Assembly (NCBI GenBank): GCA_050747745.1
Contig: JBOGKM010000029.1
Span: 8,993-72,992, forward strand
Length of the DNA stretch: 64,000 nucleotides
Origin: Terriglobales bacterium
Lineage (GTDB): Bacteria; Acidobacteriota; Terriglobia; Terriglobales; SCQP01
Direction of reading: 5' to 3'
The notes under the pieces: model-generated
Told to the model about the DNA's origin: nothing
Seen by the model: the letters and a program-made list of their open reading frames with translations, nothing else
Database searches by the model: none
Made by a program: the position numbers and the translations under genes
Shown: positions 8,834 to 62,772 of the stretch, one piece after another
Numbering within the stretch: the stretch's first letter is position 1
Layout: the number at the start of each line of letters is the position of its first letter

Positions 8834-10114
8834 TCAGCGGCCGTGGTTCCCACGCTCGGCAAAATACTGCCATTTATTGAGATTCGCCGGCACGGCGACC
8901 TTGAAAAAGCCGACCATCATTTCATCCGTGGTTTGATCTCCCCAGTAGACGGCCACGTGGGGATCGGGATTGTGGGGATTATCCGCCGAGTTGTCGTACC
9001 AGGCCACCGCCTGCAGTTTCGTTCCCGCCGGCAGCGCCAGCGGATGCGCCAGAATGTAGCTGCGCTCCCAGTAGAAGTTGTAGTTGACGCGCAGCAGCGG
9101 CACGATCTGCCCGTCGCGCCGGATCAGATCGTATTCGAAGCGCTTACCGCGCAGGTGCATGTGCGGGAAAAAGCTCAACAGCGTAGCCGGGCCGGGCAGC
9201 GTGCCCCAGGCCTCGACGCGAAAGTTCTTCACGCCGGGTGGAATCACGAAGCTGCTGTTGGTCAACTGCAGCGTGAGCACGCGCCGCTTGGGAGGCTTGC
9301 GGTTGAACACCAGGCCGATACTGCTCTGGTCCACGGCGGCTTGGCCGTTCGTGGTGTAATGCATCTGGAACACCAGGTCTGAACCTGCGGGTATATATTC
9401 GCCCAGATCGGACGGATAGCGCGCCGGCGCGCTGCCGGGGGCGTAGACTAACAGGATTTCGCTATCGGTCCACAGCGCCGCCGAGGTGGCCGGGCGGTGC
9501 AGCAGCGAGCTGGCGGTGAAGGGCTGATGCAGCGGCGCGCCGCGCAGCCATTTGGATCCGGGCGGACGCACGTAGACCACGGCGTGATGGATATGGGCAC
9601 GCGCACCAGGCCGGATTTCCGCCATCTGCACCCAGCGGCCATGGCCAAAGCCGGTGGGCACGATCTCGTAGGTGTACGCGACCTGGCCGGCGGCGGGCAG
9701 ATGTACCGGGATGGGCATGCGGAAAATCGCGTCCGGTTTGGCGATATTCCAGCCTCGGGCCCAGTGCCTCGGTGGCGGCGCCTGGCGCGGATCGCCCGCG
9801 GGCGCGCCCGCCGCGGCCCACGCAACCAGGGTGTGAATCTGCGCGGGAGTAAGCGAAGGATTATTGGCCCAATGCCCGATGCCGGGAACGGCAAACCAGG
9901 GCGGCATCTGCCGCGTGCTGGTTTTTTGCGCAATCCGGTGAGCGTAGGGTTCGGACTGGGCGTAGGTTTCCAGCGGCATGGGCCCGATTTCTCCGGGACG
10001 ATGGCAGAGCTGGCAATGCTGCTGGAGGATGGGCAGCACGTCCCTATAAAACGTGGGCGTCTGAGCTGCCGCGAGCACGGCCGCCAGCACCAGCAACAGC
10101 GCCAGGCGCATCAC
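8834..10114 (-). CDS. Secreted heme-c (CXXCH) domain fused to a copper type II ascorbate-dependent monooxygenase-like (PHM/DBH fold) domain
   Basis: Signal peptide. 'DVLPILQQHCQLCHRPG' is a c-type heme site. Cu-ligand-like motifs occur in PHM order and spacing: 'AHIHHAV', 'FQMHYT', 'FFPHMHLRGK', 'TTDEMMVGF'. Confidence 0.75.
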   Translation of the reverse strand: MMRLALLLVLAAVLAAAQTPTFYRDVLPILQQHCQLCHRPGEIGPMPLETYAQSEPYAHRIAQKTSTRQMPPWFAVPGIGHWANNPSLTPAQIHTLVAWAAAGAPAGDPRQAPPPRHWARGWNIAKPDAIFRMPIPVHLPAAGQVAYTYEIVPTGFGHGRWVQMAEIRPGARAHIHHAVVYVRPPGSKWLRGAPLHQPFTASSLLHRPATSAALWTDSEILLVYAPGSAPARYPSDLGEYIPAGSDLVFQMHYTTNGQAAVDQSSIGLVFNRKPPKRRVLTLQLTNSSFVIPPGVKNFRVEAWGTLPGPATLLSFFPHMHLRGKRFEYDLIRRDGQIVPLLRVNYNFYWERSYILAHPLALPAGTKLQAVAWYDNSADNPHNPDPHVAVYWGDQTTDEMMVGFFKVAVPANLNKWQYFAERGNHGR

Positions 10115-11454
10115 TGGACTGCGGGCGGATTGGGCAATTCCAGCGGCTGGTCGAGGCGCACGGCGAGGAATTCGCCCGCCCTAAGCGTGAGGTCCTTCTT
10201 GTGCGACAGCAGCACGCCCGCGGTACCCACCGCCGCGCCCGCGATGCCGCCGCGCATCAACCCGCCGTAGCCGCCAAAAATGCCGCCCAGCACCGCGCCG
10301 ATGGCCGCGCCCTCGCCGGCTTTTTTGCCTTCCTCGGCGCCCTGGCCGTTCACCGTGCCTTCGCTCTGATTCACCTGCTGGGCGCTGTTGCCGACGCCGT
10401 TGGTGGTGGCGCTCAGCGAGACCGGAGCTTCGCCGGGCAAAATCAGGGTGTTGTATTGCAGCTGCAGTTGGGCGTGGCCGCTGAGCTTGCCGCCACGCTG
10501 CACTTTTTCGACGATGCCGGTGATTTTCGATCCTGCCGGGATCGCCGCCACCGCCCCCACCCAGATCGGCACCGTGGTGGTGAGCGTAAACGCCTGGCCG
10601 GCGTAGGCTGTCTTGGTATTCAGTTCGCGATCCAGCCGTGTCTGGATAATCGTGCCCTCCGCCACCAGTATGCCGTTGCCGTACACCCCGCTGGGCAGCG
10701 TGGCTGCATCCGCGCCGAGCGGCAGCTGATGGGCGCGGCCGGCCGCCGCCGCGGCGATCGGCGGACGCGCGCCAATCGCAGCGTTGTAGAGGCGATGGTT
10801 GTAGCCGTCGTCGTAGCCCAGGCTGAAACCCTGGCGAAAGGAGGATTGATAAGCGCTGCTGCTACCCAGCCCGGAATCATAGCCCACCAGCGCCTGTTGG
10901 TATTCGTGGCTGGAGGTGGCATCATAGGCTGCGCCGGAATTGGCCGCCGCCTGGCCAACGTTATATCCTTCGCGGTAGCCATTGGCCTTAGCGCCCGTGG
11001 CAGGCGAATCGGCCGCCGCCGCGGGAGCCTCGCGAGGTGTGATCGCGACCGGTACTGGCGGCGCCAGCAGGGCGCGCGTGCGCCCCGCGTAGCCGTCGAA
11101 ATAGCCGTCGGAAAAACCGGTCTGAAAACGAGTGCGGTAGGTCTGCTCGGAGCCGTAGGCGGCGGTATAACCCGCGGTTCCATCTTCGTACACGGTGTAC
11201 TTGCGCACGCTGGCGCCCAGCCCGGCGGCTTTATCCTGAACCCCAAGCGGATAGGCCGCGTTATAACCGGCTGCGTAGGCGGGATCAATGTTGCTGTTGA
11301 CGGGAGCACCGGTGAGCTGCTGCGCGCTCAGCGATAGGCTGAACGCCACCAGCAGCGCCATGATCGGCCCCAGCCAGCCGACAGGGAGCTTGCATCGCCG
11401 CACGCGAGTACCTCCTCGAAGCATTGGACGCGCCCGGCGGCATCGAGGTTTCAC
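10111..11454 (-). CDS. Secreted repeat protein: four G-Y/F repeats, TrbI/VirB10-like beta domain, C-terminal glycine zipper
   Basis: Repeats 'AAGYNAAY', 'FQTGFSDGYFDGYAGR', 'NGYREGYNVGQ', 'FRQGFSLGYDDGYNHR'. 'GTIIQTRLDRELNT..AIPAGSKITG..LQLQYNTLILPG' resembles a TrbI C-terminal domain. Tail 'GAAIGAVLGGIFGGYGGLMRGGIAGAAVG'. ATGA overlap with 8834..10114. The start is probably the internal Met at 11424. Confidence 0.65.
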   Translation of the reverse strand: MKPRCRRARPMLRGGTRVRRCKLPVGWLGPIMALLVAFSLSLSAQQLTGAPVNSNIDPAYAAGYNAAYPLGVQDKAAGLGASVRKYTVYEDGTAGYTAAYGSEQTYRTRFQTGFSDGYFDGYAGRTRALLAPPVPVAITPREAPAAAADSPATGAKANGYREGYNVGQAAANSGAAYDATSSHEYQQALVGYDSGLGSSSAYQSSFRQGFSLGYDDGYNHRLYNAAIGARPPIAAAAAGRAHQLPLGADAATLPSGVYGNGILVAEGTIIQTRLDRELNTKTAYAGQAFTLTTTVPIWVGAVAAIPAGSKITGIVEKVQRGGKLSGHAQLQLQYNTLILPGEAPVSLSATTNGVGNSAQQVNQSEGTVNGQGAEEGKKAGEGAAIGAVLGGIFGGYGGLMRGGIAGAAVGTAGVLLSHKKDLTLRAGEFLAVRLDQPLELPNPPAVQ

Positions 11455-11546
11455 CCTTACAGGGTAATGTGGCCGCGCCCGGAGCGCCAGCCGGTGTCGG
11501 TTGCCGCAGATCGAAGCCCGTGCCCTCCCGCCGCCATAATCAGTCT

Positions 11547-12896
11547 GTGAACTATCTTAGGCCCATCCGCGGCTGGCGTTGTGGACAGCGCGATTTCGCT
11601 CTAGGCGAGCGCACCTGGATCATGGCCATCCTCAATCTCACGTCCGATTCGTTTTACCCCGCCAGCCGCCTCGATCCTTCCGCGCCACAGCCGCTGGAAA
11701 GCGCCGCCGGCGCCGCCCTCGAAGCCGGCGCCGATATTCTCGATCTGGGCGCCGAGTCCACCCGTCCCGGCTCGGCGCCGCTGGCTCCGGCTGCCGAGCA
11801 GGCGCGCTTGCTGCCCGCCCTGCGATTGTTGCGGCGCCGGTTCCCCCACGCCTTGCTCTCCTCCGATACCCGCCACGCCGCCACCGCCCGCGCGGCGCTC
11901 GCTTCGGGTGCCGACATCATCAACGACGTTTCCGGCGGTGCGGATCCCGCCATGCTGCCGCTGCTTTCGGAGAGCGCCTGCGGTATCGTAGTCACGCACT
12001 GCCGCGGCGAGTTCGCCACCATGCATAAGCTGCCGCCGCTCGCCGATCCGCTGGCGACGGTGCTGGCCGGCCTGCGCTCGCTCGCCCAGCGCGCCGCCGC
12101 CGCCGGCATTGACGGCGAGCGCGTCATCCTGGATCCCGGTTTCGGCTTCGGCAAAAATCTGGACGAAAACTTTCCCCTGCTTGCCGGCCTCGATCATCTG
12201 CTCGCGCTCGGCTTTCCGCTGTTGGTGGGCTTTTCGCGCAAATCGTTTCTGCGCCGCGAACGCAGCCAGGGTCCGGAGGCTCGCCTTCCGGCCAGCCTCG
12301 CCGCCGCCACCGCCGCCGCGCTGGCCGGCGCGCACATTGTCCGCACGCACGATGTGGCCGCAACGCGCGAGGCGTTGCGCATCACCGGCCACCTGCTGGC
12401 CCATGGCCCGCGGGTGCGCCGCGCGCGGCCCGCCGACGTGAACGCGATTACCTCGCTGCTCGACGCCAACACCGCCGCGCACAGCGGCGCCCTCACCGGC
12501 TCGTTTCCGCGCGCCCGCGTCGCTTCCTGGGTGGAAAGCTCCATGCCGGTCATGGTGGCCGAGTTGGATGATCAGCTGGCCGGCGTCCTGGTCAGCTCCG
12601 ACCCGGAAGCGTGGCGTGCGTCGCCCGTAATCGTGGCCATGCTCGCGGCCCACCCCCTCCCTTCTGGCGCCTATCTTTACGGCCCGGTCTGCATTGCCGC
12701 CGCCGCGCGCGGCCGCAGCGTGCTGCCCGCGCTCTATGCCGGGCTGCAGCGCCTGCTCCCCGGCCGCGAAGCTATCCTCTTCATTCGCGCCGACAATTCC
12801 CGCTCGCTGCGCGTGCACGAAAAATTGGGAATGCATCGCGCCGCCTCATTCCGCTTCGACGGCGCCGAGTTCGCCATCTGGAGCAGCCTGAGGTAA
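11547..12896 (+). CDS. folP: Dihydropteroate synthase fused to a C-terminal GNAT-like acetyltransferase domain
   Basis: 'WIMAILNLTSDSF', 'DILDLGAESTRPG', 'INDVSGG', 'ILDPGFGFGK', 'LVGFSRKSF' and 'VRTHDV' are DHPS hallmarks. From about 12410, 'VRRARPADVNAITSLLD...' continues in the same ORF as a GNAT-like domain. GTG 11547 was chosen as the start (N-terminal 'GWRCGQRDFALG' is typical of FolP). Confidence 0.85.
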   Translation: MNYLRPIRGWRCGQRDFALGERTWIMAILNLTSDSFYPASRLDPSAPQPLESAAGAALEAGADILDLGAESTRPGSAPLAPAAEQARLLPALRLLRRRFPHALLSSDTRHAATARAALASGADIINDVSGGADPAMLPLLSESACGIVVTHCRGEFATMHKLPPLADPLATVLAGLRSLAQRAAAAGIDGERVILDPGFGFGKNLDENFPLLAGLDHLLALGFPLLVGFSRKSFLRRERSQGPEARLPASLAAATAAALAGAHIVRTHDVAATREALRITGHLLAHGPRVRRARPADVNAITSLLDANTAAHSGALTGSFPRARVASWVESSMPVMVAELDDQLAGVLVSSDPEAWRASPVIVAMLAAHPLPSGAYLYGPVCIAAAARGRSVLPALYAGLQRLLPGREAILFIRADNSRSLRVHEKLGMHRAASFRFDGAEFAIWSSLR

Positions 12897-14629: not shown

Positions 14630-16003
14630 TTAGTTCCCGCCGCGCCGGAGCTTTTCCAGCTCCGCCATCCGTTCCCGGATGCGCTTTTCCCAGCCCTGCT
14701 CGCCGGGCTGGTAGTAGCTCCGGCCGCGCAGGTTTTCCGGCAGGCATTCCATGGCGGCGACCTTGGACTCGAGGTCGTGCGCGTACTGGTAGCCGCGGCC
14801 GTAGCCGAGGCCGCGCATCAGCCCGGTGGCTGCGTTGCGCAGGTGCAGCGGCACCGGCTCGGCGCGCGTCGTGTGTACATCCTCGACCACGCGTCCGTAA
14901 GCGGCGTAGAGGGCATTCGACTTCGGCGCCAGCGCCATGTAGACGCAGGCCTGCGCCAGCGCCAGCGCCGCCTCCGGCATGCCCAGCGCCTTGACGGCCG
15001 CCCGTGCCGCCAGCGCCTGCTCCAGCGCGCGCGGATCCGCCAACCCGATGTCCTCGGACGCCATGCGCACCATCCGCCGGGCCGCGTACATCGGATCTTC
15101 GCCGCTTTCCAGCAGACGCGCCAGCCAGTAAAGGCTGGCGTCCGGATCGCTATTGCGGACCGATTTGTGCAGCGCCGAAATGAGATTGAAATGCTGCTCG
15201 CCGCCGGCATCATACAGCAGCGTCTTGTGTTGCAGCGTGGCGTCGAGCAGTGCGACGGTGATTTCGATCTGGCTGCTGACATCCGGCTCAGCCCCGGCCG
15301 CCGCCGCTTCCAGCAGATTCAACCCTACGCGCGCATCGCCGTTGGCAAACGCCGCTATCCGCCGCAGTTCCGCTTCGCCCACGGCGATCTCCCGCACGCC
15401 TGCTCTGCCGGCCAGCACGCCGCGTTCGCGATCGCTCAGCGCCCGGCGCAACAGCGCGGCGATGTCCTCGTCGCTCAGCGCCTCCAGCACGTACACCCGC
15501 GCCCGCGACAGCAGCGCCGAGTTCACCTCGAAGCTCGGGTTCTCCGTGGTGGCGCCGATGAGGGTGATCGCGCCGCTTTCGACAAAGGGCAGAAAGGCAT
15601 CCTGCTGGGCGCGGTTGAAGCGATGAATTTCGTCAATAAAAACGATGGTCCGCTGTCCGGCGTGCTGGGCGCGTTCCGCCGCCGCCATTACCTCCCGGAT
15701 TTCCTTGATGCCGCTGGTCACGGCGCTGAAGGGCACGAACCGCCGTCGCGTCTGCGCCGCGATGATGCGCGCCAGGGTGGTTTTGCCCACGCCCGGCGGT
15801 CCCCACAGCAGAATGGATCCCAACTGGTCGCGTTCGATCTGCAGCCGGAGCGGCATGCCCGGCGCCAGCAGATGCTGCTGGCCCACCAGTTCCTCCAGCC
15901 CCTGGGGCCGCATGCGATCGGCCAGCGGCGGGGCGGCCGCGGCCGGCTCCGGAGGTGTTGCAAACAGTGACATGCGCGCTTCGACCCCCGCCTTAGGAGG
16001 CAC
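14630..16003 (-). CDS. rarA: Replication-associated recombination protein A (AAA+ ATPase MgsA/RarA)
   Basis: '[21 protein letters not shown]', Walker A '[17 protein letters not shown]', '[11 protein letters not shown]', and the C-terminal MgsA helical domain '[28 protein letters not shown]'. Confidence 0.93.
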
Positions 16004-16102
16004 CTGCTTCGGAGGGTAGGTTGGCTCGCCGGTGCGGCCCGGGCGAGCTCCTCGCCATCAATCACTACTACATTATCCTGCCCGGCCTGATCAGTTCGTC
16101 AG

Positions 16103-16906
16103 CTACTGCGCGGGGGCGCGCCGAAGCCGCGCCGCGGTAAATAGCAAAATCGCTCCGGCCATCGCCGCGTTCAGCGACTCCACGCCGCTGGCGATCGGGA
16201 TCGTCACCGTCGCATCGGCGACGCGCAGCAGCGCCCGCGGCACGCCTGCCGCTTCCTGGCCAATCACCAGGCACACCGGAGCGTCCAGGCCGGCCTGTTC
16301 TGGCGCGGTTCCGCCCCGCGTCGCCGTCGCCACCAGCCGCACGCCGCGGGAGCGGCAGGCGGCCATCAGCTCTTCGGCGCTTACCCGCGCCGCCACTGGC
16401 AAATGAAACAGCGAACCTGCGCTGGCGCGGACAGCCTTGGGATTGAATGGGCTTACCGTATCCGCCAGCGCCACCACCCCGGTAGCGCCAAAGGCTGCGG
16501 CGGCGCGCAGCAGCGTGCCCAAATTGCCCGGATCCTGCAACCCCCCGGCGGCCACAATGAGTGCCCGCTCGCCGAACATCGTATCCATGGATGCTGCGGT
16601 CCAGGCCACCAGCGCCGCCACCCCTTGCGGGTGTTCGGCATCCATGGCGGCGGCGAACGGCGCCTCTTCCGTCACCGCAATCACGGCGTATTTGGAAAAT
16701 TGCGGCAGCAGTTTGGCGCCGTGCTGTTCCAGGCCGCGGCGGCTGAACAGCACTTTTTCGATCCGTGCCCGGCTGCGCAGCGCCTCCCCGATCAGCCGCG
16801 GCCCCTCGAGGGCCAGCGCCGTCTCCGGCGGTCCGATGCGAAAGGCCCGGCGGAATTCGCCTAGCAACGCGTGATGACGCCCGATCGGGCTCGCTTCCCT
16901 CGGCAC
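16103..16906 (-). CDS. TrmH/SpoU-family RNA 2'-O-methyltransferase
   Basis: SPOUT motifs 'DPGNLGTLLRAAAAFG', 'LVIGQEAAGVP' and 'IPIASGVESLNAAMAGAILLF'. Confidence 0.85.
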   Translation of the reverse strand: MPREASPIGRHHALLGEFRRAFRIGPPETALALEGPRLIGEALRSRARIEKVLFSRRGLEQHGAKLLPQFSKYAVIAVTEEAPFAAAMDAEHPQGVAALVAWTAASMDTMFGERALIVAAGGLQDPGNLGTLLRAAAAFGATGVVALADTVSPFNPKAVRASAGSLFHLPVAARVSAEELMAACRSRGVRLVATATRGGTAPEQAGLDAPVCLVIGQEAAGVPRALLRVADATVTIPIASGVESLNAAMAGAILLFTAARLRRAPAQ

Positions 16907-17061
16907 CTCCCGAGTGTAGCCGACTATTTAAGCAGACTTATTTTGATTCCAGTCCAACCTTTTGGCCTCGCGCCCCCCGCGAGCTTTCCAGAAGCCCACC
17001 CAGCAGAATCAATGACTTGCGAACAAAAACTGTAGATATATAGGACCGCGAAGGCGCCGCC

Positions 17062-18090
17062 TTATAGGATCAGCATGCAGTCGCCGTAGCTGAGGAACCG
17101 GTAGCCGTTTTGGAGGGCATGCCGGTAAGCGTGGCGCACGCGATCCAGGCCGGCCAGGGCGGCGATCATCATCAACAGCGTGGTCTTGGGTGCGTGGAAG
17201 TTGGTCAGCAGTCCGTCCAGCGCGCGGAAGCTGTAGCCGGGGTAGATGTAAATACCCGTGGCGCCGCTGCTGGGCGCAAACTGGCTTCCGGCATCGGGCG
17301 CAATGGTTTCCAGCACGCGCGCGGCCGTGGTGCCCACGCCGATGATGCGCTTGCCCCGGCTGCGTGCGCGGTTCAACGCCGCCGCCGCCGCCGCGCTCAC
17401 CGCGTAGCGCTCGTGGTGCATGGGATGCTGCTCGATAGTCTCGCTGGTCACCGGCTGAAACGTGCCCAGCCCGACGTGTAAGCTGATCGTTGTCCATGCC
17501 ATGCCGCACGCCTTCAGGCGTTCCAGCACGCGCGCGCTGAAGTGGAGACCCGCAGTGGGCGCCGCCGCCGAGCCGGTCGCGCGCGCGTAGATGGTCTGGT
17601 AGCGCTCGTGATCCGCGGCCGCGTCCGGACGCCTGATATAGGGCGGCAGCGGCACGTGGCCGTGGATCTCGAGCCAGGCCGCAAGGCTGGGCACGCCGGA
17701 AAAGCGCAGCCGCCGCTCGCCGCGCTCACTCCGGCCCACGACCTCGGCGCGCAGCCCGGCGGCAAACGCCAGCTTCGTGCCCGGCGCGAGTTTACCGGCC
17801 GGCCGCGTCAGCGCCGTCCATTCCTCTGCCCCCACCTCCTCCAATAGCAGAATCTCGGCCTTGCCGCCGTCGGCGCGCTGGCCCAACAATCGCGCCGGAA
17901 ACACGCGTGACTCGTTGGCGACTAGCAAGTCACCGGGCGCGAGCAGTTCCGGCAGGTCGCGGAACTGCCGGTCTTCCAGATCTCCGTCCGTACGGCGCAG
18001 CACCAGCATGCGCGCCGCATCGCGTTCGGCGGGTGGCTGCTGGGCGATGCGCTCCGGCGGCAACTCGTAATCAAATTCGCTCAACTGCAT
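17062..18090 (-). CDS. queA: S-adenosylmethionine:tRNA ribosyltransferase-isomerase
   Basis: The canonical N-terminus 'MQLSEFDYELPPERIAQQP' starts at ATG 18090. 'GTTAARVLE' and 'LLTNFHAPKTTLLMMIAA' follow. The 111 codons upstream in the track ORF are shadow sequence overlapping the aldolase gene. Confidence 0.93.
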   Translation of the reverse strand: MQLSEFDYELPPERIAQQPPAERDAARMLVLRRTDGDLEDRQFRDLPELLAPGDLLVANESRVFPARLLGQRADGGKAEILLLEEVGAEEWTALTRPAGKLAPGTKLAFAAGLRAEVVGRSERGERRLRFSGVPSLAAWLEIHGHVPLPPYIRRPDAAADHERYQTIYARATGSAAAPTAGLHFSARVLERLKACGMAWTTISLHVGLGTFQPVTSETIEQHPMHHERYAVSAAAAAALNRARSRGKRIIGVGTTAARVLETIAPDAGSQFAPSSGATGIYIYPGYSFRALDGLLTNFHAPKTTLLMMIAALAGLDRVRHAYRHALQNGYRFLSYGDCMLIL

Positions 18091-18120: not shown

Positions 18121-18894
18121 ATGGCGGACGAGCAGGCGCAAGAGATCGCGGCGCGGCAGGACATCTTGAGCATTGGTCGGTTTCTGCACCAGAAAAGCCT
18201 GGTGGCCGCCAGCGACGGCAACATCTCCGTGCGCCTGCCCGGTGAACGCATCCTGGCCACGCCCACCTCCATGAGCAAGGGCCTGATGCGGGACGAGGAT
18301 CTGGTCCTCACCGATCTGGAGGGCCACAAGCTGGCCGGCGCGCGCAACCCCTCCAGCGAAATGGCCATGCACCTGCTCATTTACCGCCTTCGACCGGAGG
18401 TCGGCGGCGTCGTGCATGCCCATCCGCCCGCCGCCACCGGCTTCGCCGCGGCCGGCATCCCGCTCAATCAGGCGCTGCTGGCCGAAGTCGTGCTAGCGCT
18501 GGGCTGCATTCCGCTCGCCGCCTACGGGACCACGGGTACGCCCGAGCTTTCCGCCACGCTGCGGCCGCTGATTCCGCATTACGATGCCATCCTGATGGCC
18601 AATCACGGCGTCGTCACCTACGGCGAGGATGTCTGGAAGGCCTATTTCAAGATGGAAACGGTAGAGCATTTCGCGCGTATCGCCCTGGTGACTCATTTGC
18701 TGGGCCGGCAGAACCTGCTCGGCCGCGAGGAAGTGGACAAGCTGATGCAGGCGCGCGAGCGCTACGAAGGCGTCTCCAGCGCCGCCGCAGTTTCGCCCGC
18801 GTGTCCGGTCACGCGCGAAGCCGACCCCCAGCCGCTCGCCGGGGCGGCAGCGGCGGCCGGCCCGAATTTTCCCGACGGCAAACGGCGCTGGTAA
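18121..18894 (+). CDS. Class II aldolase/adducin-family protein (fuculose-phosphate-aldolase-like) with a 40-aa C-terminal extension; first gene of the BMC operon
   Basis: 'ASDGNISVRL', 'SSEMAMHLLIY', 'GGVVHAHPPAATGFA' and 'ILMANHGVVTYGEDVWKAYFKMETVEHFA' give the metal-His and fold motifs of Aldolase_II. The tail 'VSSAAAVSPACPVTREADPQPLAGAAAAAGPNFPDGKRRW' lies beyond the fold. Confidence 0.88.
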   Translation: MADEQAQEIAARQDILSIGRFLHQKSLVAASDGNISVRLPGERILATPTSMSKGLMRDEDLVLTDLEGHKLAGARNPSSEMAMHLLIYRLRPEVGGVVHAHPPAATGFAAAGIPLNQALLAEVVLALGCIPLAAYGTTGTPELSATLRPLIPHYDAILMANHGVVTYGEDVWKAYFKMETVEHFARIALVTHLLGRQNLLGREEVDKLMQARERYEGVSSAAAVSPACPVTREADPQPLAGAAAAAGPNFPDGKRRW

Positions 18895-18918
18895 GCTACA
18901 ATCGCCCGAGGAGCGGCT

Positions 18919-19224
18919 ATGGCGGACATCAGCGGCGAAGCGTGGGGCATGGTTGAAACCAAGGGGTTGGTGGCGATGATTGAAGCCGCCGACGCCATGG
19001 TGAAAGCGGCCAACGTCATTCTGGTCGGTTGGGAGAAAAAAATCGGCGCCGGCTACGTCACCGCCATCGTGCAAGGAGATGTGGCCGCCGTCAAAGCCGC
19101 CACCGAAGCGGGAGCGGCGGCGGCGCGACGCATCGGGGAAGTCCTCTCGGTGCATGTGATTCCCCGCCCGGCGGCCGGACTGTCGCGCGCGGTTCCGCTG
19201 CAGGGCCTTCCGCCCGGGGCCTGA
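18919..19224 (+). CDS. Bacterial microcompartment shell protein, BMC-H (PduA/EutM/CcmK-type hexamer)
   Basis: '[58 protein letters not shown]...[10 protein letters not shown]' is a near-canonical single BMC domain with the KIGAG pore loop. A GAGGAG Shine-Dalgarno lies 6 nt upstream. Confidence 0.93.
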
Positions 19225-19236
19225 GCCTGATCGCCC

Positions 19237-19506
19237 ATGCAGCTTGCCCGCGTTATCGGTACCGTGGTGGCCACGCGCAAGGATGCGCGCCTGGAAGGAT
19301 TCAAACTGCTGGTCGTGCGCCCGCAGACTGCCGCAGGCCAGGACGAGGCCGGTTATGTGGTCGCGGTGGACATGGTGGGCGCGGGCGCGGGCGAGCGCGT
19401 GCTCATCGTGCAGGGCAGCTCGGCGCGCATGGCGCGCGACGGGCAGGACAAACCCATTGATGCCGCCATCGTCGGCATCGTGGATACGGTCGAGCTGGTG
19501 AGGTAA
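19237..19506 (+). CDS. BMC vertex protein, BMC-P (EutN/CcmL family), paralog 1
   Basis: 'MQLARVIGTVVATRKDARLEGFKLLVV...AVDMVGAGAGERVLIVQGSSAR...PIDAAIVGIVD' is the typical EutN/CcmL pattern. Confidence 0.9.
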   Translation: MQLARVIGTVVATRKDARLEGFKLLVVRPQTAAGQDEAGYVVAVDMVGAGAGERVLIVQGSSARMARDGQDKPIDAAIVGIVDTVELVR

Positions 19507-19509
19507 GCC

Positions 19510-19800
19510 GTGTTCCTGGCTCGCGTGACCGGAACCGTTGTCGCCACCGTCAAGGATGCCGCCTTGCGCTCCCACAAGCTGCTTGTGGTCCAGCCGCTCG
19601 ATGCCGCCGCGGGGCCCGTGGGCCGCGAGTTGGTGGCGCTGGACGCGGTCGGCGCAGGCGCGGGTGAAATCGTCTACTGCTGCCGCGGCAAGGAAGCCAG
19701 CTTTCCCTGGTTGCCCGCCAGCGTACCCGCCGACGCCGCCATCGTGGGCATTGTGGATCCCGCTGCCAATCGCGACTGGCTGCTGGAGACGGCATCATGA
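19510..19800 (+). CDS. BMC vertex protein, BMC-P (EutN/CcmL family), paralog 2
   Basis: GTG start 3 nt after paralog 1. 'FLARVTGTVVATVKDAALRSHKLLVVQP...ALDAVGAGAGEIVYCCRG...ADAAIVGIVD'. Confidence 0.88.
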   Translation: MFLARVTGTVVATVKDAALRSHKLLVVQPLDAAAGPVGRELVALDAVGAGAGEIVYCCRGKEASFPWLPASVPADAAIVGIVDPAANRDWLLETAS

Positions 19801-20099
19801 TCGTCGGCCGCGTGACCGGCGAAGTGGTCGCCACCCAAAAACACGGCAGTCACCAGGGCCGCAAGCTGCTGCTGGTCGCTCCCGAAACGCTCGACTCCGG
19901 AACCCCGTTGCCGGCGCGCGGCACACCCGCCGGCGGCGCCGCCCTCATCGCGCTCGATGCCGTGGGTGCCGGTGTGGGCGAGCGCGTGCTCGTGGTGCTG
20001 GATGGCTACGCCGCCATGACCGCGGTCAGCCGCCCCATGTCGCCGATCGATGCCGCCGTGGTCGGCATCCTCGACCGTCTGGATCTGTCCACGCCATGA
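19797..20099 (+). CDS. BMC vertex protein, BMC-P (EutN/CcmL family), paralog 3
   Basis: ATGA overlap with paralog 2. 'MIVGRVTGEVVATQKHGSHQGRKLLLV...ALDAVGAGVGERVLVV...PIDAAVVGILD'. It carries a Pro/Gly-rich insert. Confidence 0.85.
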   Translation: MIVGRVTGEVVATQKHGSHQGRKLLLVAPETLDSGTPLPARGTPAGGAALIALDAVGAGVGERVLVVLDGYAAMTAVSRPMSPIDAAVVGILDRLDLSTP

Positions 20100-20692
20100 C
20101 CGGGCCCGCCGCGCCCATCGTCAACGTCGGCTACCGCTCCACGAATTATTGGCTGATCGGAGATGGCGATCGAAGATTGCTGCTGGATCTCGGCTGGCCC
20201 GGCTCCCTGGGCGCGATGCGCGCGGCGCTGCGCCGGGCCGGGGTAGCGCCGCAAGACATCGCCTACGGCTTGGCCACGCACTATCACATGGATCACGCCG
20301 GGCTGGGCGAAGAGCTGAAACAGTTCGGCATGCGGCTGTTGGTCGTCGATCTGCAACTCGCGGCGATCCCCGCCATGCGGGCCCACATTAAACCGCAAGA
20401 TCACTACGTTGAGATTGCGGATGCCGGCAATCTGGTGATTCCTGCTTCCGGCAGCCGGGCGTTGTTGGCGCAGATCGGCCTGGCGGGCGAAATTCTGCCC
20501 ACGCCGGGCCATAGCGACGACAGCGTATCGTTGCTGTTGGACGACGGATCGGTGTTTACCGGCGATCTGACCCCGCCCGCGATGGCCACCGAAGAGGAGG
20601 CGGCCACGGTCGCGGCGAGCTGGCAACTGCTACAGCAGCGCGGGGCACGCCGCTGCTATCCCGCCCACGGTCCAGTGCGTGCGCTGGCGTAG
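20096..20692 (+). CDS. MBL-fold metallo-hydrolase (small, about 198 aa), translationally coupled to the last BMC-P gene
   Basis: ATGA overlap at 20096-20099. 'NYWLIGDGDRRLLLDLGWPG', 'THYHMDHAG' (HxHxDH), 'TPGHSDDS' and 'FTGD' follow the metallo-beta-lactamase motif order. Confidence 0.85.
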   Translation: MTGPAAPIVNVGYRSTNYWLIGDGDRRLLLDLGWPGSLGAMRAALRRAGVAPQDIAYGLATHYHMDHAGLGEELKQFGMRLLVVDLQLAAIPAMRAHIKPQDHYVEIADAGNLVIPASGSRALLAQIGLAGEILPTPGHSDDSVSLLLDDGSVFTGDLTPPAMATEEEAATVAASWQLLQQRGARRCYPAHGPVRALA

Positions 20693-20714
20693 GGTTCCGC
20701 GCCGCAGGCGCCGT

Positions 20715-21098
20715 CTATCGTCGAAAAAACGGCTGCACGTGGCCGTGGCCCCGGGCGTTGAAGGTAATCTGCTCCATGGAATGGTAGATCGTCCCCTGTC
20801 CGCTGAACTCGCCCACCCCCAACATAAGGTCGCGGCCATCACTCATCGGCAGCACCACCCAGCGCCCCGAGCTCGGTTCTAGACCACGCGTGTAGGTCAA
20901 GAGCCTGACCGAGGATCCGCGCAGAGCGAACAGAAGACCAACTCCGCAATTCAGCAGGTGCGGTTCGCAGCCCGGGCCGGTGATCAGGAAATCGCGGCTG
21001 CTGGGCTTATGGAATGAGCCCGTCCAGGCGCTATCGAGCTCAAACGGACCGCTCCAGCTAAACCTTCCCGAGGTCGTGGACTGCCGCGGACACTGCAC
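20715..21098 (-). CDS. Hypothetical protein (127 aa) in a locally lower-GC patch
   Basis: GTG-start ORF with moderate GC3 bias and non-shadow-like composition. No motif recognised. Lies downstream of the bactofilin gene on the same strand. Confidence 0.35.
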   Translation of the reverse strand: MQCPRQSTTSGRFSWSGPFELDSAWTGSFHKPSSRDFLITGPGCEPHLLNCGVGLLFALRGSSVRLLTYTRGLEPSSGRWVVLPMSDGRDLMLGVGEFSGQGTIYHSMEQITFNARGHGHVQPFFRR

Positions 21099-21217
21099 GC
21101 ACCCTGTCGGCCGGCCGGCGCGGCTATGAGCACGCTGGTGTCCAGGGCAGATCTGCAGGAGAGTGGCAGTGAGGGTTGCTGTGGCTACAAGCGCCGCAGG
21201 CCCCCGGCTCCAGCCGC

Positions 21218-39967: not shown

Positions 39968-40109
39968 GGGCAGGTCCTTGGGAGGATGGGATGTGGGATA
40001 GCGGATGCGATGCCCCGCGCGATCGGGCCAGTTGCATGCAGGGGCGGATTTGAGTTCTCGTCGAGTAGTGTGCTATAAGAACTCCGGTCACCTTAGCAGG
40101 GGGTTACAG

Positions 40110-43100
40110 ATGCGCATGGGTCGTCGTGTGGTGTTCGGTTTGCTTCCGGTGGCATTGTTGCTGGCTGGCGTAGCGGTGGCGCAATCGGCGCCGGCTGCGG
40201 TATGGAGCCAACTGCGCTGGCGCAGCATCGGGCCCTACGTTGGCGGCCGGGTGGTCGCGGTCGACGGCGTCGCCCGGGATCCGAATCTGTTTTTCATGGG
40301 CACGGTCGGTGGCGGGATTTGGAAGAGCACCGACTACGGGCTGCAGTGGAAAAACATTTCCGACGGCACGCTGCCCGGCGCCAGCGCCAGCATCGGAGCG
40401 CTGGCGGCCGCACCCTCGAATCCGAAAATTATTTACGCCGGTACAGGCGAATGCGATATCCGCAACGACACTATTCCCGGCGACGGCATTTTCAAATCCA
40501 CCGACGGCGGCAAAACCTGGAAATACGCTGGTTTGCGCGCCACCCGCACCACCTGCGCCCTCGCCATTGATCCGCAGAATCCTGACGTTGTTTACGCCGC
40601 TTCCATGGGCCAGGTGTTCGTGCCGAATGCCGAAGGCGGAGTCTACAAGACAACCGATGGCGGCCAAACCTGGAACAAGATTCTTTCCGTGAACGACCGC
40701 ACCGGCGCGATTGACCTGGTGATGCAGCCGGGCCAGCCGGACGAGCTGTACGCCGCCCTGTGGCAGGCACAGCGCACTCCCTGGACCTTGGACGATGGCG
40801 GAGCGGGCAGCGGTTTGTACAAAACCACCGATGGCGGCGCCCACTGGACCAACCTGATCCGCAATCCCGGCATGCCCGCCGGCACCATCGGGCGGGTCGG
40901 TGTCAGCGTGACCGCAGCCGATCCCGAGCGCGTGTACGCCATCGTCGAGGCCAAGCACGGAGGTGTGTTCCGCTCCTCCGATGGTGGCCAGACCTGGAAG
41001 CGCGTGAACAAGGATTGGCAGTTGCGTATCCGCGCCTTTTACTACACCGCCTTGTATGCCGATCCCAAGGACGCCAACGTGGTCTACGCCCCCCAGGTGG
41101 CCGCGCTTTGGGTCTCGCGCGACGGCGGCGAGACCTTCCAGCGTCTGCATACGCCCCACGGCGACAACCACATCGTCTGGATCAACCCGGATCAGACGAA
41201 GATTCTGCTGGAGGGCAACGACGGCGGTGCGACCGTTTCCACCGACGGCGGCAAGAGCTGGAGCAGCGAGGATAATCAGCCCACGGGCGAGATGTACCAC
41301 GTCAACATTGACAATGAATTTCCCTTCCATGTCTACGGGGCGCAGCAGGACGAAGGTTCAAGCGAAGGTCCCAGCTCGACGCCTGCGGGCGGCATTCCGC
41401 TTTCGGCGTGGAAAGAAATTGCCGGCGGCGAAAGCACCCATGTGGTGCCCGTGCCCGGCGAACCCTGGATCAATTTCGGCAGCGGCTACTTCGAGCTGTT
41501 CACCAGCAAGAACCGGCGCACGGGCGAAGTAGACGATGTCAGTCCGGAGCCGGACATGCACGACGGCGAGGCGGCCAGCGCCATGACGTACCGCTTCGGG
41601 TGGACGCACGCGATCACCTTTTCGCCCGTGAACCCCAAGCAGTTGCTGCTCGGTGCCCAGTACGTGCTGGAAAGCTTCGATTATGGCCGCACCTGGAAAC
41701 GCATCAGCCCGGATCTGACCCGCAACAATCCCGCCACCGAAGGTCCCTCCGGCGGTCCCGTCACGCTCGATCAGACGGGCGCGGAAACCTATCCTGGCTT
41801 GCAGACGATCGCGGTTTCGCCGTTGAACGGCAACCTCATTTGGGCGGGCTCGGACGACGGCCTGGCGCACGTCACCCGCAACGGCGGCAAGACCTGGCAG
41901 GCGGTGACACCGCCGCAGTTGCCGGACCAGTCCTGGATCAGTTGCATTGAGCCTTCCTACTCCGATCCGGGCACGGCTTATCTGACCGCTCGACGCTACA
42001 TGTGGAACGACTACCAGCCCTACGTTTACAAAACCACCGACTACGGCCAGACCTGGACGCCGATCGTTAACGGCTTGCCCGCGCACAGCTATGTCTTTGA
42101 GCTGCGCCAGGATCCGGATGCGCCCAATTTGTTGTTTCTGGGCACGAACAGCACTGTCGAGGTGAGTTTCGACGACGGCCAGCTCTGGCAGCCGCTGGCG
42201 CTGAACCTGCCCACCGTCCAGGTGCGGGATCTTGCAGTCGACCGGCGTCAGGGCGAGCTGGTGATTGCCACCCACGGACGGGCGTTCTGGATTCTCGACA
42301 ATCTGGCGATGCTCGAGCAGCTCAGCCGCAAGCCGGACGCGGGTTCGACTAGCCCGTATCTGTTCACACCCGAGAAGGTCTGGCTCAGCCCGGCCTATGG
42401 CGGCGGCCGGTTTCCGCGGCCGGGTGCGGGTCAGAATCCGCCGTTTGGGGCCACGGTGTTTTTTACCATCCCCGCCAGCTATGATGGCTCGACACCGGTC
42501 CAGTTGAGCTTTGCCAACGCGCAGGGCCAGACCATCCGCAGCTTTGCGCTGCACCTGAAAAACAAGGCGGCCAATGCAGCTGGAGCGGGCGCGCCGGCGC
42601 GCGCCCTCAGTCCGGCGCAGCGGGCGCAGCGCGCCCGCCAGCGGCTCACGGCCATCACCCCGGGCACGAATCGCTTTCAATGGGATATGCGTTATCCAAG
42701 TGCCGCCAGCATCACCGGCTTCCAGCCTCCGGTGGGCGTCGGGGTGGCGTACAGCATGGCGGGACCGGTGATTACGCCGGGCGAGTACAGCGTGACCCTG
42801 AGCTACGGCGGCCAGAAGTTGGCGCGCAACTTTACCGTGGCCCTCGATCCGCGCCTGCACCCGCCCGCGGGAGCACTGGAAGCGCAACTAAAGCTGCAGT
42901 TGCAGATTCACGCCACGCTCGACCATTTGGATCAGCAAATCAATCAGGCCTTGGCCGAGCGCGCTCGCCTGCAGCAAGCCGGCAATAGCGGCGCCGCGGC
43001 CAGCCTCGGCCAGGCGCTGGCGCCGCTGGTACAGTTGAAGCTGCGGGGCGGAGAATCCGATGCCGTCTACGGCACCCGCTTGCACTTGCATCTGGCGTTT

Positions 43101-43229
43101 CTAGCGGGCGAAGTGACCGAAGGCTACCGCAGCCCCACGCCCGCAGAGCTGGCGGCCTATCAGTACCTGGCCGGCAAAATTGCTACTGCCGAGCAGGCGC
43201 TCACGGCAGCCATGGCACGGGGTCGGTAG
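40110..43229 (+). CDS. Secreted BNR/sortilin (VPS10)-like double beta-propeller protein (GH74-like glycosyl-hydrolase superfamily)
   Basis: Start ATG 40110 with a signal peptide. At least 11 Asp-box repeats of S/T-x-D-x-G-x-T/S-W type ('STDGGKTWKY', 'TTDGGQTWNK', 'SSDGGQTWKR', 'STDGGKSWSS', 'TTDYGQTWTP', ...). Confidence 0.85.
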   Translation: MRMGRRVVFGLLPVALLLAGVAVAQSAPAAVWSQLRWRSIGPYVGGRVVAVDGVARDPNLFFMGTVGGGIWKSTDYGLQWKNISDGTLPGASASIGALAAAPSNPKIIYAGTGECDIRNDTIPGDGIFKSTDGGKTWKYAGLRATRTTCALAIDPQNPDVVYAASMGQVFVPNAEGGVYKTTDGGQTWNKILSVNDRTGAIDLVMQPGQPDELYAALWQAQRTPWTLDDGGAGSGLYKTTDGGAHWTNLIRNPGMPAGTIGRVGVSVTAADPERVYAIVEAKHGGVFRSSDGGQTWKRVNKDWQLRIRAFYYTALYADPKDANVVYAPQVAALWVSRDGGETFQRLHTPHGDNHIVWINPDQTKILLEGNDGGATVSTDGGKSWSSEDNQPTGEMYHVNIDNEFPFHVYGAQQDEGSSEGPSSTPAGGIPLSAWKEIAGGESTHVVPVPGEPWINFGSGYFELFTSKNRRTGEVDDVSPEPDMHDGEAASAMTYRFGWTHAITFSPVNPKQLLLGAQYVLESFDYGRTWKRISPDLTRNNPATEGPSGGPVTLDQTGAETYPGLQTIAVSPLNGNLIWAGSDDGLAHVTRNGGKTWQAVTPPQLPDQSWISCIEPSYSDPGTAYLTARRYMWNDYQPYVYKTTDYGQTWTPIVNGLPAHSYVFELRQDPDAPNLLFLGTNSTVEVSFDDGQLWQPLALNLPTVQVRDLAVDRRQGELVIATHGRAFWILDNLAMLEQLSRKPDAGSTSPYLFTPEKVWLSPAYGGGRFPRPGAGQNPPFGATVFFTIPASYDGSTPVQLSFANAQGQTIRSFALHLKNKAANAAGAGAPARALSPAQRAQRARQRLTAITPGTNRFQWDMRYPSAASITGFQPPVGVGVAYSMAGPVITPGEYSVTLSYGGQKLARNFTVALDPRLHPPAGALEAQLKLQLQIHATLDHLDQQINQALAERARLQQAGNSGAAASLGQALAPLVQLKLRGGESDAVYGTRLHLHLAFLAGEVTEGYRSPTPAELAAYQYLAGKIATAEQALTAAMARGR

Positions 43230-58627: not shown

Positions 58628-59545
58628 ATGCTACGGAAGACTAACCCAATTATAGCGGCTTGGCTGCTGGGATTGTTGGCGCTGGCGGGGATGGCACAAG
58701 CACCGGCCAAGGTGCGCCTGGTGGCCACCTACACCCCGGATTCCTGGCTGATTTATTCGGCCACCATTCACACGACCATCACTACCCACACCAGCCAAAA
58801 CGCCAATTGGAATGCAAGGCTGGATACCAAGGCTGAGATCCGACTGCACGTGCTGTCAGGCGCCACGCCTAACAACTTTCAGATGGAGGCGCGCTTCACC
58901 AGCTACAAAACCACCGTCACGGCGCAAAATCCCAACCAGCAGGCGCAGTTACAGCAACAGTCGGCCGCCTCGGATCAGGCCGCCACTGGCATGAAGCCGG
59001 CGCGATTTCAGGTGAGCAACGGCCACTTCACCATCCTGTTCCGCCAGCCAGGCGGCGCCTACGATCAGGCGGTGGACATGTTGAGCGAGCTGGCACGCAC
59101 CGACGAGCTACCCGCCGGACCGGTGGCCGTGGGTGCTACCTGGACCCGGCAACGGACGCGTGGCATTCCGGAAACCTCGCTCTCGATGCCGCTTACCCTG
59201 CATTGCACGCTTACCGCGCTCAGCAGCGGGCACGGTCAACGCACGGCCACGATTGGCGTGCAGAGCAGCTCGGGCATCAATCTTCCGCCCGGTTCGCTGC
59301 CTGACTCGCAGCAACTGGCGCGCGAAGGGCTGGTTCCCATGGGCAAGTTCAGCTTCACCACCACCACCATGGCCCAGTTCCGGACGGCGGACGCGGTGCT
59401 GCTGGATACCAGCAGCCAAACGCACAGCACCATGCATCTCGACTTCATCGGGCCGAGCCCGAAGGCGGAGACATCGGATTCGCAAATTCACTCCACCGGC
59501 GAAGTTAAGCTCGTAAAAATCCTGACGGTGCCGGGAAAGCGCTAA
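58628..59545 (+). CDS. Hypothetical secreted protein (305 aa)
   Basis: ATG 58628 is preceded by GAGAAGG. Signal peptide 'IIAAWLLGLLALAGMAQA'. Gln/Thr-rich. The upstream 229 codons of the track ORF are antisense to the SDR/MTase genes. Confidence 0.6.
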   Translation: MLRKTNPIIAAWLLGLLALAGMAQAPAKVRLVATYTPDSWLIYSATIHTTITTHTSQNANWNARLDTKAEIRLHVLSGATPNNFQMEARFTSYKTTVTAQNPNQQAQLQQQSAASDQAATGMKPARFQVSNGHFTILFRQPGGAYDQAVDMLSELARTDELPAGPVAVGATWTRQRTRGIPETSLSMPLTLHCTLTALSSGHGQRTATIGVQSSSGINLPPGSLPDSQQLAREGLVPMGKFSFTTTTMAQFRTADAVLLDTSSQTHSTMHLDFIGPSPKAETSDSQIHSTGEVKLVKILTVPGKR

Positions 59546-62500: not shown

Positions 62501-62772
62501 GGGCCGGACGCGCCGATGGATTCGAGCTGGCGCCGCAGCGGCTCGGGGTGCAGTACCGGGAAGCGCAGCGCGCGCTCATACGCCTGGAAGCGGTGCGCGG
62601 CGGGCGAGAGCGCATCCCGCGATTGGCGGAAGCGCATGAACCAGTCAGCGCGCGCCAAGGGGTGGTCACCCTCTGGATACGGATTCGGCTTACGCGCTGC
62701 CTGGGTCAGTGCCAGCGCGGTAACCAGACCCAGCGCGACCACCACCATCGCACCGCCGAGTCCCTTGTTCAT
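59542..62772 (-). CDS. Secreted BNR/Asp-box beta-propeller protein with C-terminal Ig-like region and an unusual TM plus lipobox-like tail
   Basis: N-terminal anchor 'AMVVVALGLVTALAL'. Asp-boxes 'SIDGGQTWTQ', 'SADGGATWTQ', 'SSDQGQSWTA', 'STNAGQSWRP', 'TSNAGLSWTN' and 'STDGGATA'. C-terminal '..PVLWLFLLAAASLTAVGARAQRRMPVWAALVLLALASAACGGSSSNN..'. Confidence 0.8.
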   Translation of the reverse strand: MNKGLGGAMVVVALGLVTALALTQAARKPNPYPEGDHPLARADWFMRFRQSRDALSPAAHRFQAYERALRFPVLHPEPLRRQLESIGASGPSSLSGNWSELGPRPETDPNYGDVAGRLTAIAVDTGKDPSGNTLYLGAADGGLWMSTDALLPDPTFTPIGDNLPSLAIGSIALDDSTSPTTIYVGTGEPNLSQDSYYGDGIFKSIDGGQTWTQGTGVNFLGSAISRLLIDPTDPQVLLAAVTEGGVYVNNDFVVSAPAIGIVRSADGGATWTQVFPAAGGTAASGTDILYDPANGSYYAALRGQGFFSSSDQGQSWTALPSPFSVPTSSQNFYRTSLALRGTTLFALITDSDGKQTGSYDCSGCSGLVESTNAGQSWRPLSLPAPPNLYGSNSQGSYDQFIAAPPNSNQLVIGGIDVWSGTAGSSRMNWTNLTRAYTGGYVHPDEHAIWCLSATSWVIANDGGAWYTSNAGLSWTNKNATLGTIQFYSVSTDAAMNGAVLGGSQDNGTALLSSGSETIWSSLLGGDGGHTAVNPGQTGQFFTEDYGISLQRSDNSGLTWNPVVNGSTITDIGEFYIPFILAPSDPSTVYLLTQRVWRGPADPGAPGSGWNPISSDIIHLVGAMDDSQDDLTALAAAPQAPNVLYVGAYDGSLSVSQDATNTLAMPSWTEVQPGAATFAGPVGAIAVSPVSPQIVYWGLGFVGPNAALFKSTDGGATAINISGNLPGTPINAIVIDPDAPNDIYVATDVGVFVTTDGGVAGEQWSLLGDNLPAAAVLSLALTRTQDASPVVTAGTHGRGAWSIPTLAPAGFSFAANPALPVVAPGIDAATIILTPTFADGFAGPVTWSCSSTAAVQCGFSPANSAPGGGDTTLTVSGLSALAASSNIPLTVTATGAASTWSEQLALANNGDFNLTALPASVTLTSADNNQAPVTLRFGVSYGLQLNATLSCAGLPAGYTCQVPSGPVAISNGSTTTLTIAAGGAAASVPVVGGNGPVLWLFLLAAASLTAVGARAQRRMPVWAALVLLALASAACGGSSSNNGPPAQTSTVTITATVAPPGSTQTLSQTATVQVITN

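Follow-up and report, generated by a model that had tools for sequence, protein, structure and literature searches.

A probable main locus for an ACI-like bacterial microcompartment of reduced content in a Terriglobales bacterium

Six genes of the plus strand lie one behind the other at positions 18121–20692 of a 64-kb stretch of contig JBOGKM010000029.1 from a Terriglobales bacterium (the window, by which the whole of the 64,000 nucleotides analysed is meant), and they encode a class II aldolase, four bacterial microcompartment (BMC) shell proteins and a hydrolase of the metallo-β-lactamase (MBL) fold. The first gene (18121–18894) specifies a FucA-like aldolase of 257 amino acids (aa; Pfam Aldolase_II, 3.6e-46), the signature enzyme of the cassette. 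It is followed by the BMC-H hexamer shell protein (18919–19224, 101 aa; Pfam BMC, 2.9e-27) and by three BMC-P paralogues, P1 (19237–19506, 89 aa; Pfam EutN_CcmL, 8.3e-32), P2 (19510–19800, 96 aa; EutN_CcmL, 3.1e-27), and P3 (19797–20099, 100 aa; EutN_CcmL, 5.5e-22), the last with a lineage-specific internal insertion. The MBL-fold hydrolase of 198 aa (20096–20692; Pfam Lactamase_B, 8.6e-16) starts at an internal ATG of the open reading frame (ORF) 19538–20692. The intergenic gaps are 24, 12, 3, −4, and −4 nucleotides (nt), and both this tight packing and the gene identities given in the first-pass annotation, including an MBL with the sequence THYHMDHAG, agree with the ORF coordinates and the Pfam matches, the HxHxDH motif being present. 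The locus is a reduced variant of a kind of acidobacterial microcompartment that has already been catalogued, and it is probably the main locus of a BMC resembling the ACI type of Sutter et al. 2021 (Nat Commun 12:3809; PMC8217296).

Genes were picked by the bias in G+C at third codon positions (GC3), and about 47 likely coding ORFs were scanned against Pfam, with a few short ORFs left unscanned. Among the scanned ORFs there was no match to Aldedh, PTAC/PduL, Fe-ADH, Acetate_kinase, or 2-Hacid_dh and no additional BMC or EutN_CcmL domain, and the 10 kb beyond the window start are also devoid of these enzyme and shell families. The canonical core of a metabolosome, that is, an aldehyde dehydrogenase (AldDh), a phosphotransacylase (PTAC), and an alcohol dehydrogenase beside the shell genes, was accordingly not found in the window by Pfam, and the absence first noticed from the letters alone is borne out for the ORFs scanned in the 64 kb.

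Relatives of the locus were found with an alignment of the aldolase in a GTDB set of one genome per species, in which at least 588 genomes carry an aldolase relative; the best 79 of these were taken for the comparison of loci, and all of their ORFs were searched with the six window proteins. The 79 loci come from acidobacterial metagenome-assembled genomes (MAGs), mostly of Terriglobia, with the exception of one that is labelled Bacillota. This one, L052 (JAIMBE010000003.1), has an Acidiferrales-type cassette and flanks and was deposited as 'Bacillota bacterium', and is probably a mislabelled or contaminated bin. The order aldolase-H-P1-P2-P3 is kept in 42 of the 79, the aldolase stands alone in 35, and the locus is truncated in two; throughout the 42, each window pentamer finds its best match in the pentamer at the equivalent position, so that P1, P2, and P3 have positional orthologues. 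Since no MBL homologue occurs in any of the 79 loci, the conserved unit is one of five genes (the aldolase, one BMC-H, and three BMC-P), not of the six that had been proposed at first. Acidobacteria are a dominant soil phylum, and this minimal cassette is common in those of soil and widespread in Terriglobia.

The surroundings of the cassette recur as well. In the window, queA (17062–18090, minus strand; Pfam Queuosine_synth, 4.5e-127) is divergent from the aldolase gene and 30 nt upstream of it, and serves as a synteny anchor in Terriglobales; in 43 related loci it is the gene next upstream of the aldolase. Two contexts are repeatedly seen: one with queA before the cassette and a TonB-dependent receptor behind it, and one with genes for a TPR (tetratricopeptide repeat) protein, a CofD/YvcK-like protein, and glutamate dehydrogenase before it and with RuvA and RuvB behind it. 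The conserved neighbours are housekeeping genes, a cysteine dioxygenase also being among them, and no enzyme besides the aldolase is consistently linked to the cassette among the neighbours of the related loci. At one fixed site (queA, aldolase, TonB receptor), some species have the shell genes and others do not, and this natural series is a handle for the phylogenetic profiling of the missing partners and for testing encapsulation peptides (EPs), while the five-gene cassette itself is a compact candidate for shell engineering. Two further peculiarities were noted in this set. A Terriglobia MAG (L026) has two tandem five-gene cassettes (9980–12432 and 14860–17335), about 4.9 kb apart, with identical aldolase tails and a TonB-receptor gene between the copies. 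In L029 (about 11570–12290) and L067 (3478–3903), an ORF of about 140 aa (cluster c87) is found between pentamer genes; it resembles a GIY-YIG nuclease by eye alone, which suggests the entry of a selfish element into the cassette there.

The aldolase has L-fuculose-phosphate aldolases as its best solved relatives (6btd at 1.2e-24), and its NCBIfam matches to FucA, AraD, OtnC, and MtnB are all far below the cut-offs, so that a substrate is not assignable from them. In an alignment of 16 homologues, E80, H99, H101, and H162 are invariant, residues that we take to correspond to the catalytic Glu and the zinc-binding His of FucA. The catalytic domain ends near residue 215, and a Pro/Ala-rich extension follows (residues 216–257, encoded at 18766–18891, plus strand) that ends in GKRRW and is without an amphipathic encapsulation helix. 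In the shell-linked relatives, the tail consists of CPVT, a variable linker, and then (R/K)ITVTREELAAIVEDAxRHxKRRW or a close variant, which forms a clear amphipathic helix (the tail helix of one relative's aldolase reads VTREELAAIVEDA). When aligned with relatives bearing VTREELAAIVEDAxRHxKRRW, the window tail has a deletion of about 24 aa; it contains six Pro, and its longest run free of Pro and Gly is 8 aa, in contrast to 20–33 aa in the helix-bearing relatives. An AlphaFold2 model built from the 16-sequence alignment shows no helix after residue 216, with low confidence there (mean predicted local distance difference test score, pLDDT, of 56).

Whether a tail of this kind goes with a shell can be read from its distribution. 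A hydrophobic-moment classifier applied to the last 45 residues turned out to be contaminated by the last helix of the catalytic domain in short-tailed proteins, its Fisher p of 0.003 was not used, and the CP[VI] motif and the tail alignment were taken in its place. All 46 shell-linked aldolases have the CP[VI] linker motif, against 6 of the 35 shell-less ones (counts that are not phylogenetically independent), and the EP helix occurs in every shell-linked aldolase outside the window subclade. In an approximate neighbour-joining tree of the catalytic domain, shell-linked, helix-bearing aldolases are spread over several deep clades, and one large clade of about 29 species has neither adjacent shell genes nor the CPVT/helix tail, the aldolase being kept at the queA/TonB-receptor site. 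The co-loss of the tail and the adjacent shell genes gives good comparative support to the aldolase tail as a putative packaging signal. The subclade of the window (with L012, L011, L002, L014, and L094) departs from this pattern in that shells are present and the tails are rich in Pro, stretches without Pro or Gly reaching 8 aa at most, and keep only CPVTR[ED] and a terminal KRRW (mostly GKRRW). This helix-less tail is shared by the sister species L013, L018, and L015, next to whose aldolase genes no shell genes lie, and L016 and L017 have kept the helix, again with no adjacent shell genes. Counting L064, L082, and L085, there are eight species with a shell-type aldolase tail (of either the EP-helix or the KRRW form) and no shell genes within 3 kb downstream, in which the shell genes have either moved elsewhere in the genome or been lost very recently.

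If the aldolase releases an aldehyde inside a shell, an enzyme that consumes it is to be expected, and it was looked for in several ways. No AldDh turned up within about 28 kb upstream or about 44 kb downstream of the locus, and a scan for AldDh motifs (acylating signatures and PROSITE patterns) within 10 kb of about 90 loci returned only three single-motif chance matches. A regular expression for the EP, run over all ORFs of about 90 related loci (1.6 Mb), matched aldolases only. An EP profile of 34 positions, for which 26 aldolase tails were used, gave, over 1.84 billion representative proteins, 52 matches at E ≤ 0.001, none of which exceeds 273 aa and none of which is thus an AldDh; the 19 of the 52 that were inspected are C-terminal fragments of aldolases or apparent chimeras, and no AldDh and no second cargo were identified, a negative result that is weak because short profiles miss divergent EPs. 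A search with BMC-H, finally, yielded among its top 120 matches no obvious satellite paralogue and no BMC-T, and it brought up the closest relative, L098. Among the short proteins met on the way, P0241 (the first ~62 aa of BMC-P1), P0274 (NAD-binding dehydrogenase-like), and P0277 (of no recognised kind) join a foreign N-terminus to an EP tail, and may be chimeras of assembly or gene calling or real fusions.

Taken at face value, these searches would fit a self-sufficient compartment of Terriglobia that encloses the aldolase only and needs no AldDh, which might hold a step producing a reactive aldehyde or dihydroxyacetone phosphate (DHAP), or run a confined aldol condensation. The aldolase is the sole enzyme of the cassette in all 42 shell-linked species loci, with housekeeping genes around it; the EP was confined to aldolases both in the related loci and in the representative protein library, and no AldDh motif beyond chance turned up in the 10 kb around any related locus. 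We nevertheless regard such a compartment as unlikely. An enclosed enzyme that releases an aldehyde, with no consumer at hand, has no known rationale in established BMC biology, and in most ACI genomes, according to the catalogue, satellites encode an EP-bearing AldDh (PMC8217296). The short EP profile has little power for divergent EPs, and the many relatives in which the aldolase has no adjacent shell mean that the enzyme works outside a shell.

The shell proteins of the window subclade bear changes of their own. The BMC-H scores 118 bits against NCBIfam EutM, under the cut-off of 133, and in this subclade only it has a 1-aa insertion, so that the pore reads EKKIGAG versus EKIGSG (an extra Lys before the pore loop, and GSG changed to GAG); the edge motif PRPH has become PRPA, likewise only there, other Terriglobia loci keeping the typical motifs (a PduA sequence served as reference in the BMC-H alignment). 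Members of the subclade share these altered motifs of pore and edge. Pairwise ratios of nonsynonymous to synonymous substitution rates (dN/dS), calculated by the Nei–Gojobori method between the window genes and those of five subclade relatives, were 0.09–0.16 for the aldolase, 0.04–0.11 for BMC-H, 0.07–0.15 for P1, 0.15–0.29 for P2, and 0.13–0.24 for P3, values that are approximate since dS is high (0.35–1.8); they indicate that all five cassette genes are under purifying selection. This selection, together with motifs shared across the subclade, suggests a shell that has been remodelled rather than one that is decaying. As for the pentamers, the P1 orthologues of L005, L008, L027, L038, L066, and L073 have a C-terminal extension that ends in a charged, helix-like stretch (for example LDALHEAELAAARKK). 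A shell protein carrying its own tail peptide is unusual; the window P1 is without the extension, which was lost in the same subclade as the aldolase helix.

Two further explanations turn on these changes. According to the first, the microcompartment in this subclade of Terriglobales has been rewired and not merely reduced, as an aldolase with an invariant, helix-less GKRRW end, a BMC-H with an added Lys before the pore loop and without the His of PRPH, and retained selection would have it; we hold this to be distinctly unlikely. It would imply either that targeting relies on a new signal of very small length or that the shell now has another, unlinked cargo to serve. According to the second, the locus is a relic heading for loss, in which the aldolase is no longer packaged and the shell genes are decaying or near deletion. 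The loss of the EP helix throughout the subclade speaks for a relic, as do the shell-less L013, L018, and L015 with the same helix-less aldolase, the likewise shell-less L016 and L017, the sister clade of about 29 species that has lost both shell and tail, and the PRPA edge motif of BMC-H. On the other side, all five ORFs are intact and tightly packed, dN/dS against the five relatives is low for BMC-H and for the three BMC-P (0.07–0.29 taken together) at the dS given above, and the derived motifs of BMC-H are themselves kept throughout the subclade, which points to remodelling; a relic is very unlikely.

The sixth gene of the window has a different history. The MBL gene is a recent, lineage-specific insertion that is translationally coupled to P3: the junction CCATGACC is a 4-nt ATGA overlap, by which the MBL is probably co-transcribed and co-translated with P3. 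The closest relatives (L098/L099 and L002–L004) have the flanks of the window, with rarA, SpoU, and queA on one side of the cassette and bactofilin, thiL, RDD, and LptD on the other, and in all of them P3 is directly followed by bactofilin with no MBL; in L094, another close relative, flagellar genes come after P3, again with no MBL. When the DNA of the window is aligned with that of L098, homology stops right after P3, and the window has about 1.1 kb extra. Flanking repeats or a mobile-element signature were not found around the insertion. The rest of this lineage-only segment up to bactofilin (20693–21217) has no gene in the public record; a 127-aa ORF in it (20715–21098, minus strand) is convergent with the MBL gene, coding-like in its GC3 (0.76), and without a Pfam match.

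The family of the MBL is very large, with proteins of about 200 aa that are about 65% identical across several phyla. The nearest homologues found outside the lineage (77–78% identity) have a 134-aa ORF on one side and an aldo-keto reductase on the other, shell genes being absent from the vicinity, and the sole solved relative of the MBL is human LACTB2 (4.7e-12). Many members of the family (P0121–P0240) carry a precomputed match to Pfam PF23023 (Anti-Pycsar Apyc1, a cyclic-nucleotide phosphodiesterase fold), which is only faint for the window protein, and JGI names for the family vary from LACTB2 to glyoxylase-like and ribonuclease. The Lactamase_B domain spans residues 13–164 of the 198, and there is no terminal extension able to hold an EP. 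The MBL is most simply a passenger gene and its association with the cassette incidental; if the microcompartment has been rewired, the co-translated MBL may have been newly recruited to it as a partner in the lineage of the window. A minimal organelle in which the chemistry of aldolase and MBL is combined, the latter being a second enzyme of the lumen, had been offered as one reading of the six genes, and has the 4-nt overlap and the intact metal-binding motifs in its favour, but it is barely credible and largely refuted by the absence of the MBL both from all 79 loci of the comparison and from the nearest relatives, whose flanks are identical, by the want of any N- or C-terminal extension for an EP, and by a family that is ubiquitous across phyla mostly without the cassette and whose nearest members adjoin an aldo-keto reductase and no shell genes.

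The upstream flank of the cassette comprises S1/rpsA, RarA, a SpoU methylase, and QueA, and the downstream flank bactofilin and AIRS/ThiL, so the description of the flanks as housekeeping genes (rpsA, rarA, the trmH-family/SpoU gene, and queA; bactofilin and thiL) stands. G+C is 61–69% throughout with no island signature, and scans for Rfam families, tRNAs, promoters, and terminators found nothing regulatory at the locus. The sources of the aldolase homologues give Terriglobales, Terriglobia, or Acidobacteriota as their names, in keeping with an acidobacterial origin. Positions 1–52034 are identical to contig CCXETJ010000077.1 of MAG GCA_973402415.1; the window runs about 12 kb past the end of this contig, the sole NCBI contig that matches, and so stems from a longer assembly. 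Two Sortilin/BNR-repeat proteins of about 1075 aa are encoded in the window, one of them adjoining a DUF3443 protein; the genes concerned are at 40005–43229, 59542–62772, and 62794–63996. The protein of 59542–62772 is on record only in a 7-kb Logan contig, whose gene order, DUF2844-DUF3443-Sortilin, marks a conserved module unrelated to the BMC locus.

How a BMC made by this locus would work can be sketched from established BMC biology. A small, closed polyhedral shell would be formed, with facets made of BMC-H hexamers and with BMC-P pentamers closing its vertices, and shells of H and P proteins only are known from model systems. Inside, the substrate of the aldolase would be a ketose-1-phosphate (L-fuculose- or L-rhamnulose-1-phosphate, say), whose cleavage would give DHAP and a reactive aldehyde, lactaldehyde for instance. 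Entry of the enzyme into the shell would depend, for most lineages, on the C-terminal amphipathic encapsulation helix; in the window subclade, packaging of the aldolase is uncertain because this helix is gone. The aldehyde would then be oxidised by an EP-bearing AldDh encoded at a distance, as in ACI loci (PMC8217296).

Several catalogued BMC types share elements with the locus. PVM loci (the fucose/rhamnose metabolosome type of Planctomycetes and Verrucomicrobia) hold AldDh, PTAC (PduL), acetate kinase, a reductase resembling lactate/malate dehydrogenase, and a DeoR regulator, none of which was found in the window by Pfam, and filing the locus there was rejected on this count. The type I satellite of the HO type (Haliangium ochraceum) is similar in that a small module of aldolase and pentamers stands apart from AldDh. 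The HO type, however, is myxobacterial, its satellite has two BMC-P and no BMC-H, and its main locus carries AldDh and BMC-T, so that this filing was rejected as well. GRM5, the glycyl-radical type of Firmicutes for fucose and rhamnose, has a homologous class II aldolase that is expected to release lactaldehyde; it differs in its glycyl radical enzyme, AldDh, PduS, and regulator, and belongs to another phylum with another shell complement.

The closest kind is ACI, and the guess that published catalogues might already hold this layout was well placed. This type comprises 125 loci, all from Acidobacteria and mainly from subdivisions 4 and 6; its main locus has a class II aldolase (pfam00596) whose C-terminus carries an EP and which is most similar to the HO/MIC3 aldolase, together with BMC-H and a contiguous BMC-P triplet, and in most ACI genomes an AldDh with an EP is on a distal satellite locus (PMC8217296). 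The clades that the catalogue gives for ACI are green, grey, and orange for BMC-P and aldol_5_aci2 for the aldolase. The Solibacter loci (Ca. Solibacter usitatus) filed as 'PVM-like' by Axen et al. 2014 (PMC4207490) were re-filed as ACI in 2021. The literature search brought up neither a later study of ACI or of Terriglobia microcompartments nor any experimental work on an ACI-type BMC. The assignment of the window to a reduced, ACI-like BMC has to be weighed against a number of points, to which the fruitless searches for an AldDh and a second cargo described above belong. A putative AldDh elsewhere in the genome is expected from the catalogue's statement on ACI. The window aldolase has no amphipathic EP helix, although it keeps the 42-aa extension ending in GKRRW. 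Among the ~47 window proteins there is no 2-hydroxyacid dehydrogenase (pfam00389/02826), and the three proteins filed as 'unknown' in ACI (among them one rich in His, and a Cys protein of ~80 aa that has its EP at the N-terminus) are missing; the gaps between the genes leave no room in the operon for a dehydrogenase or extra ORFs, and neither the dehydrogenase nor the Cys and His-rich proteins were seen among the conserved neighbours of the related loci. The host is of Terriglobales and not of subdivisions 4 and 6. In the part of the catalogue's supplement text that was searched, Terriglobales genera and the ACI aldolase and AldDh hidden Markov models were not found, and Terriglobia loci of the minimal form were, within the same material, not traced among the 125 ACI loci. 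The BMC-H, with PRPA and EKKIGAG in place of the typical PRPH and GSG, and the appended MBL gene are further differences, and the locus is in sum close to ACI and no textbook example of it, given the lack of the dehydrogenase, the unassigned proteins, and the EP helix.

The likenesses outweigh these points in our assessment. The host is acidobacterial, a pfam00596 aldolase is the first gene of the operon, one BMC-H and three adjacent BMC-P follow, and the main locus contains neither BMC-T nor AldDh. By the definition of the catalogue (a minimum of one BMC-H together with one BMC-P; PMC8217296), the locus is a main locus and not a satellite, so that of the suggestion of a satellite with its core enzymes elsewhere, the satellite status falls and the partners elsewhere are favoured. 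A main locus without AldDh is the described norm for this type and not an anomaly, since ACI carries its AldDh on a satellite. The combination of shell and aldolase with no aldehyde-oxidising core is, therefore, the published hallmark of ACI; the leads worth keeping are the helix-less aldolase with a remodelled BMC-H under selection, and the natural series of Terriglobia species with and without the shell.

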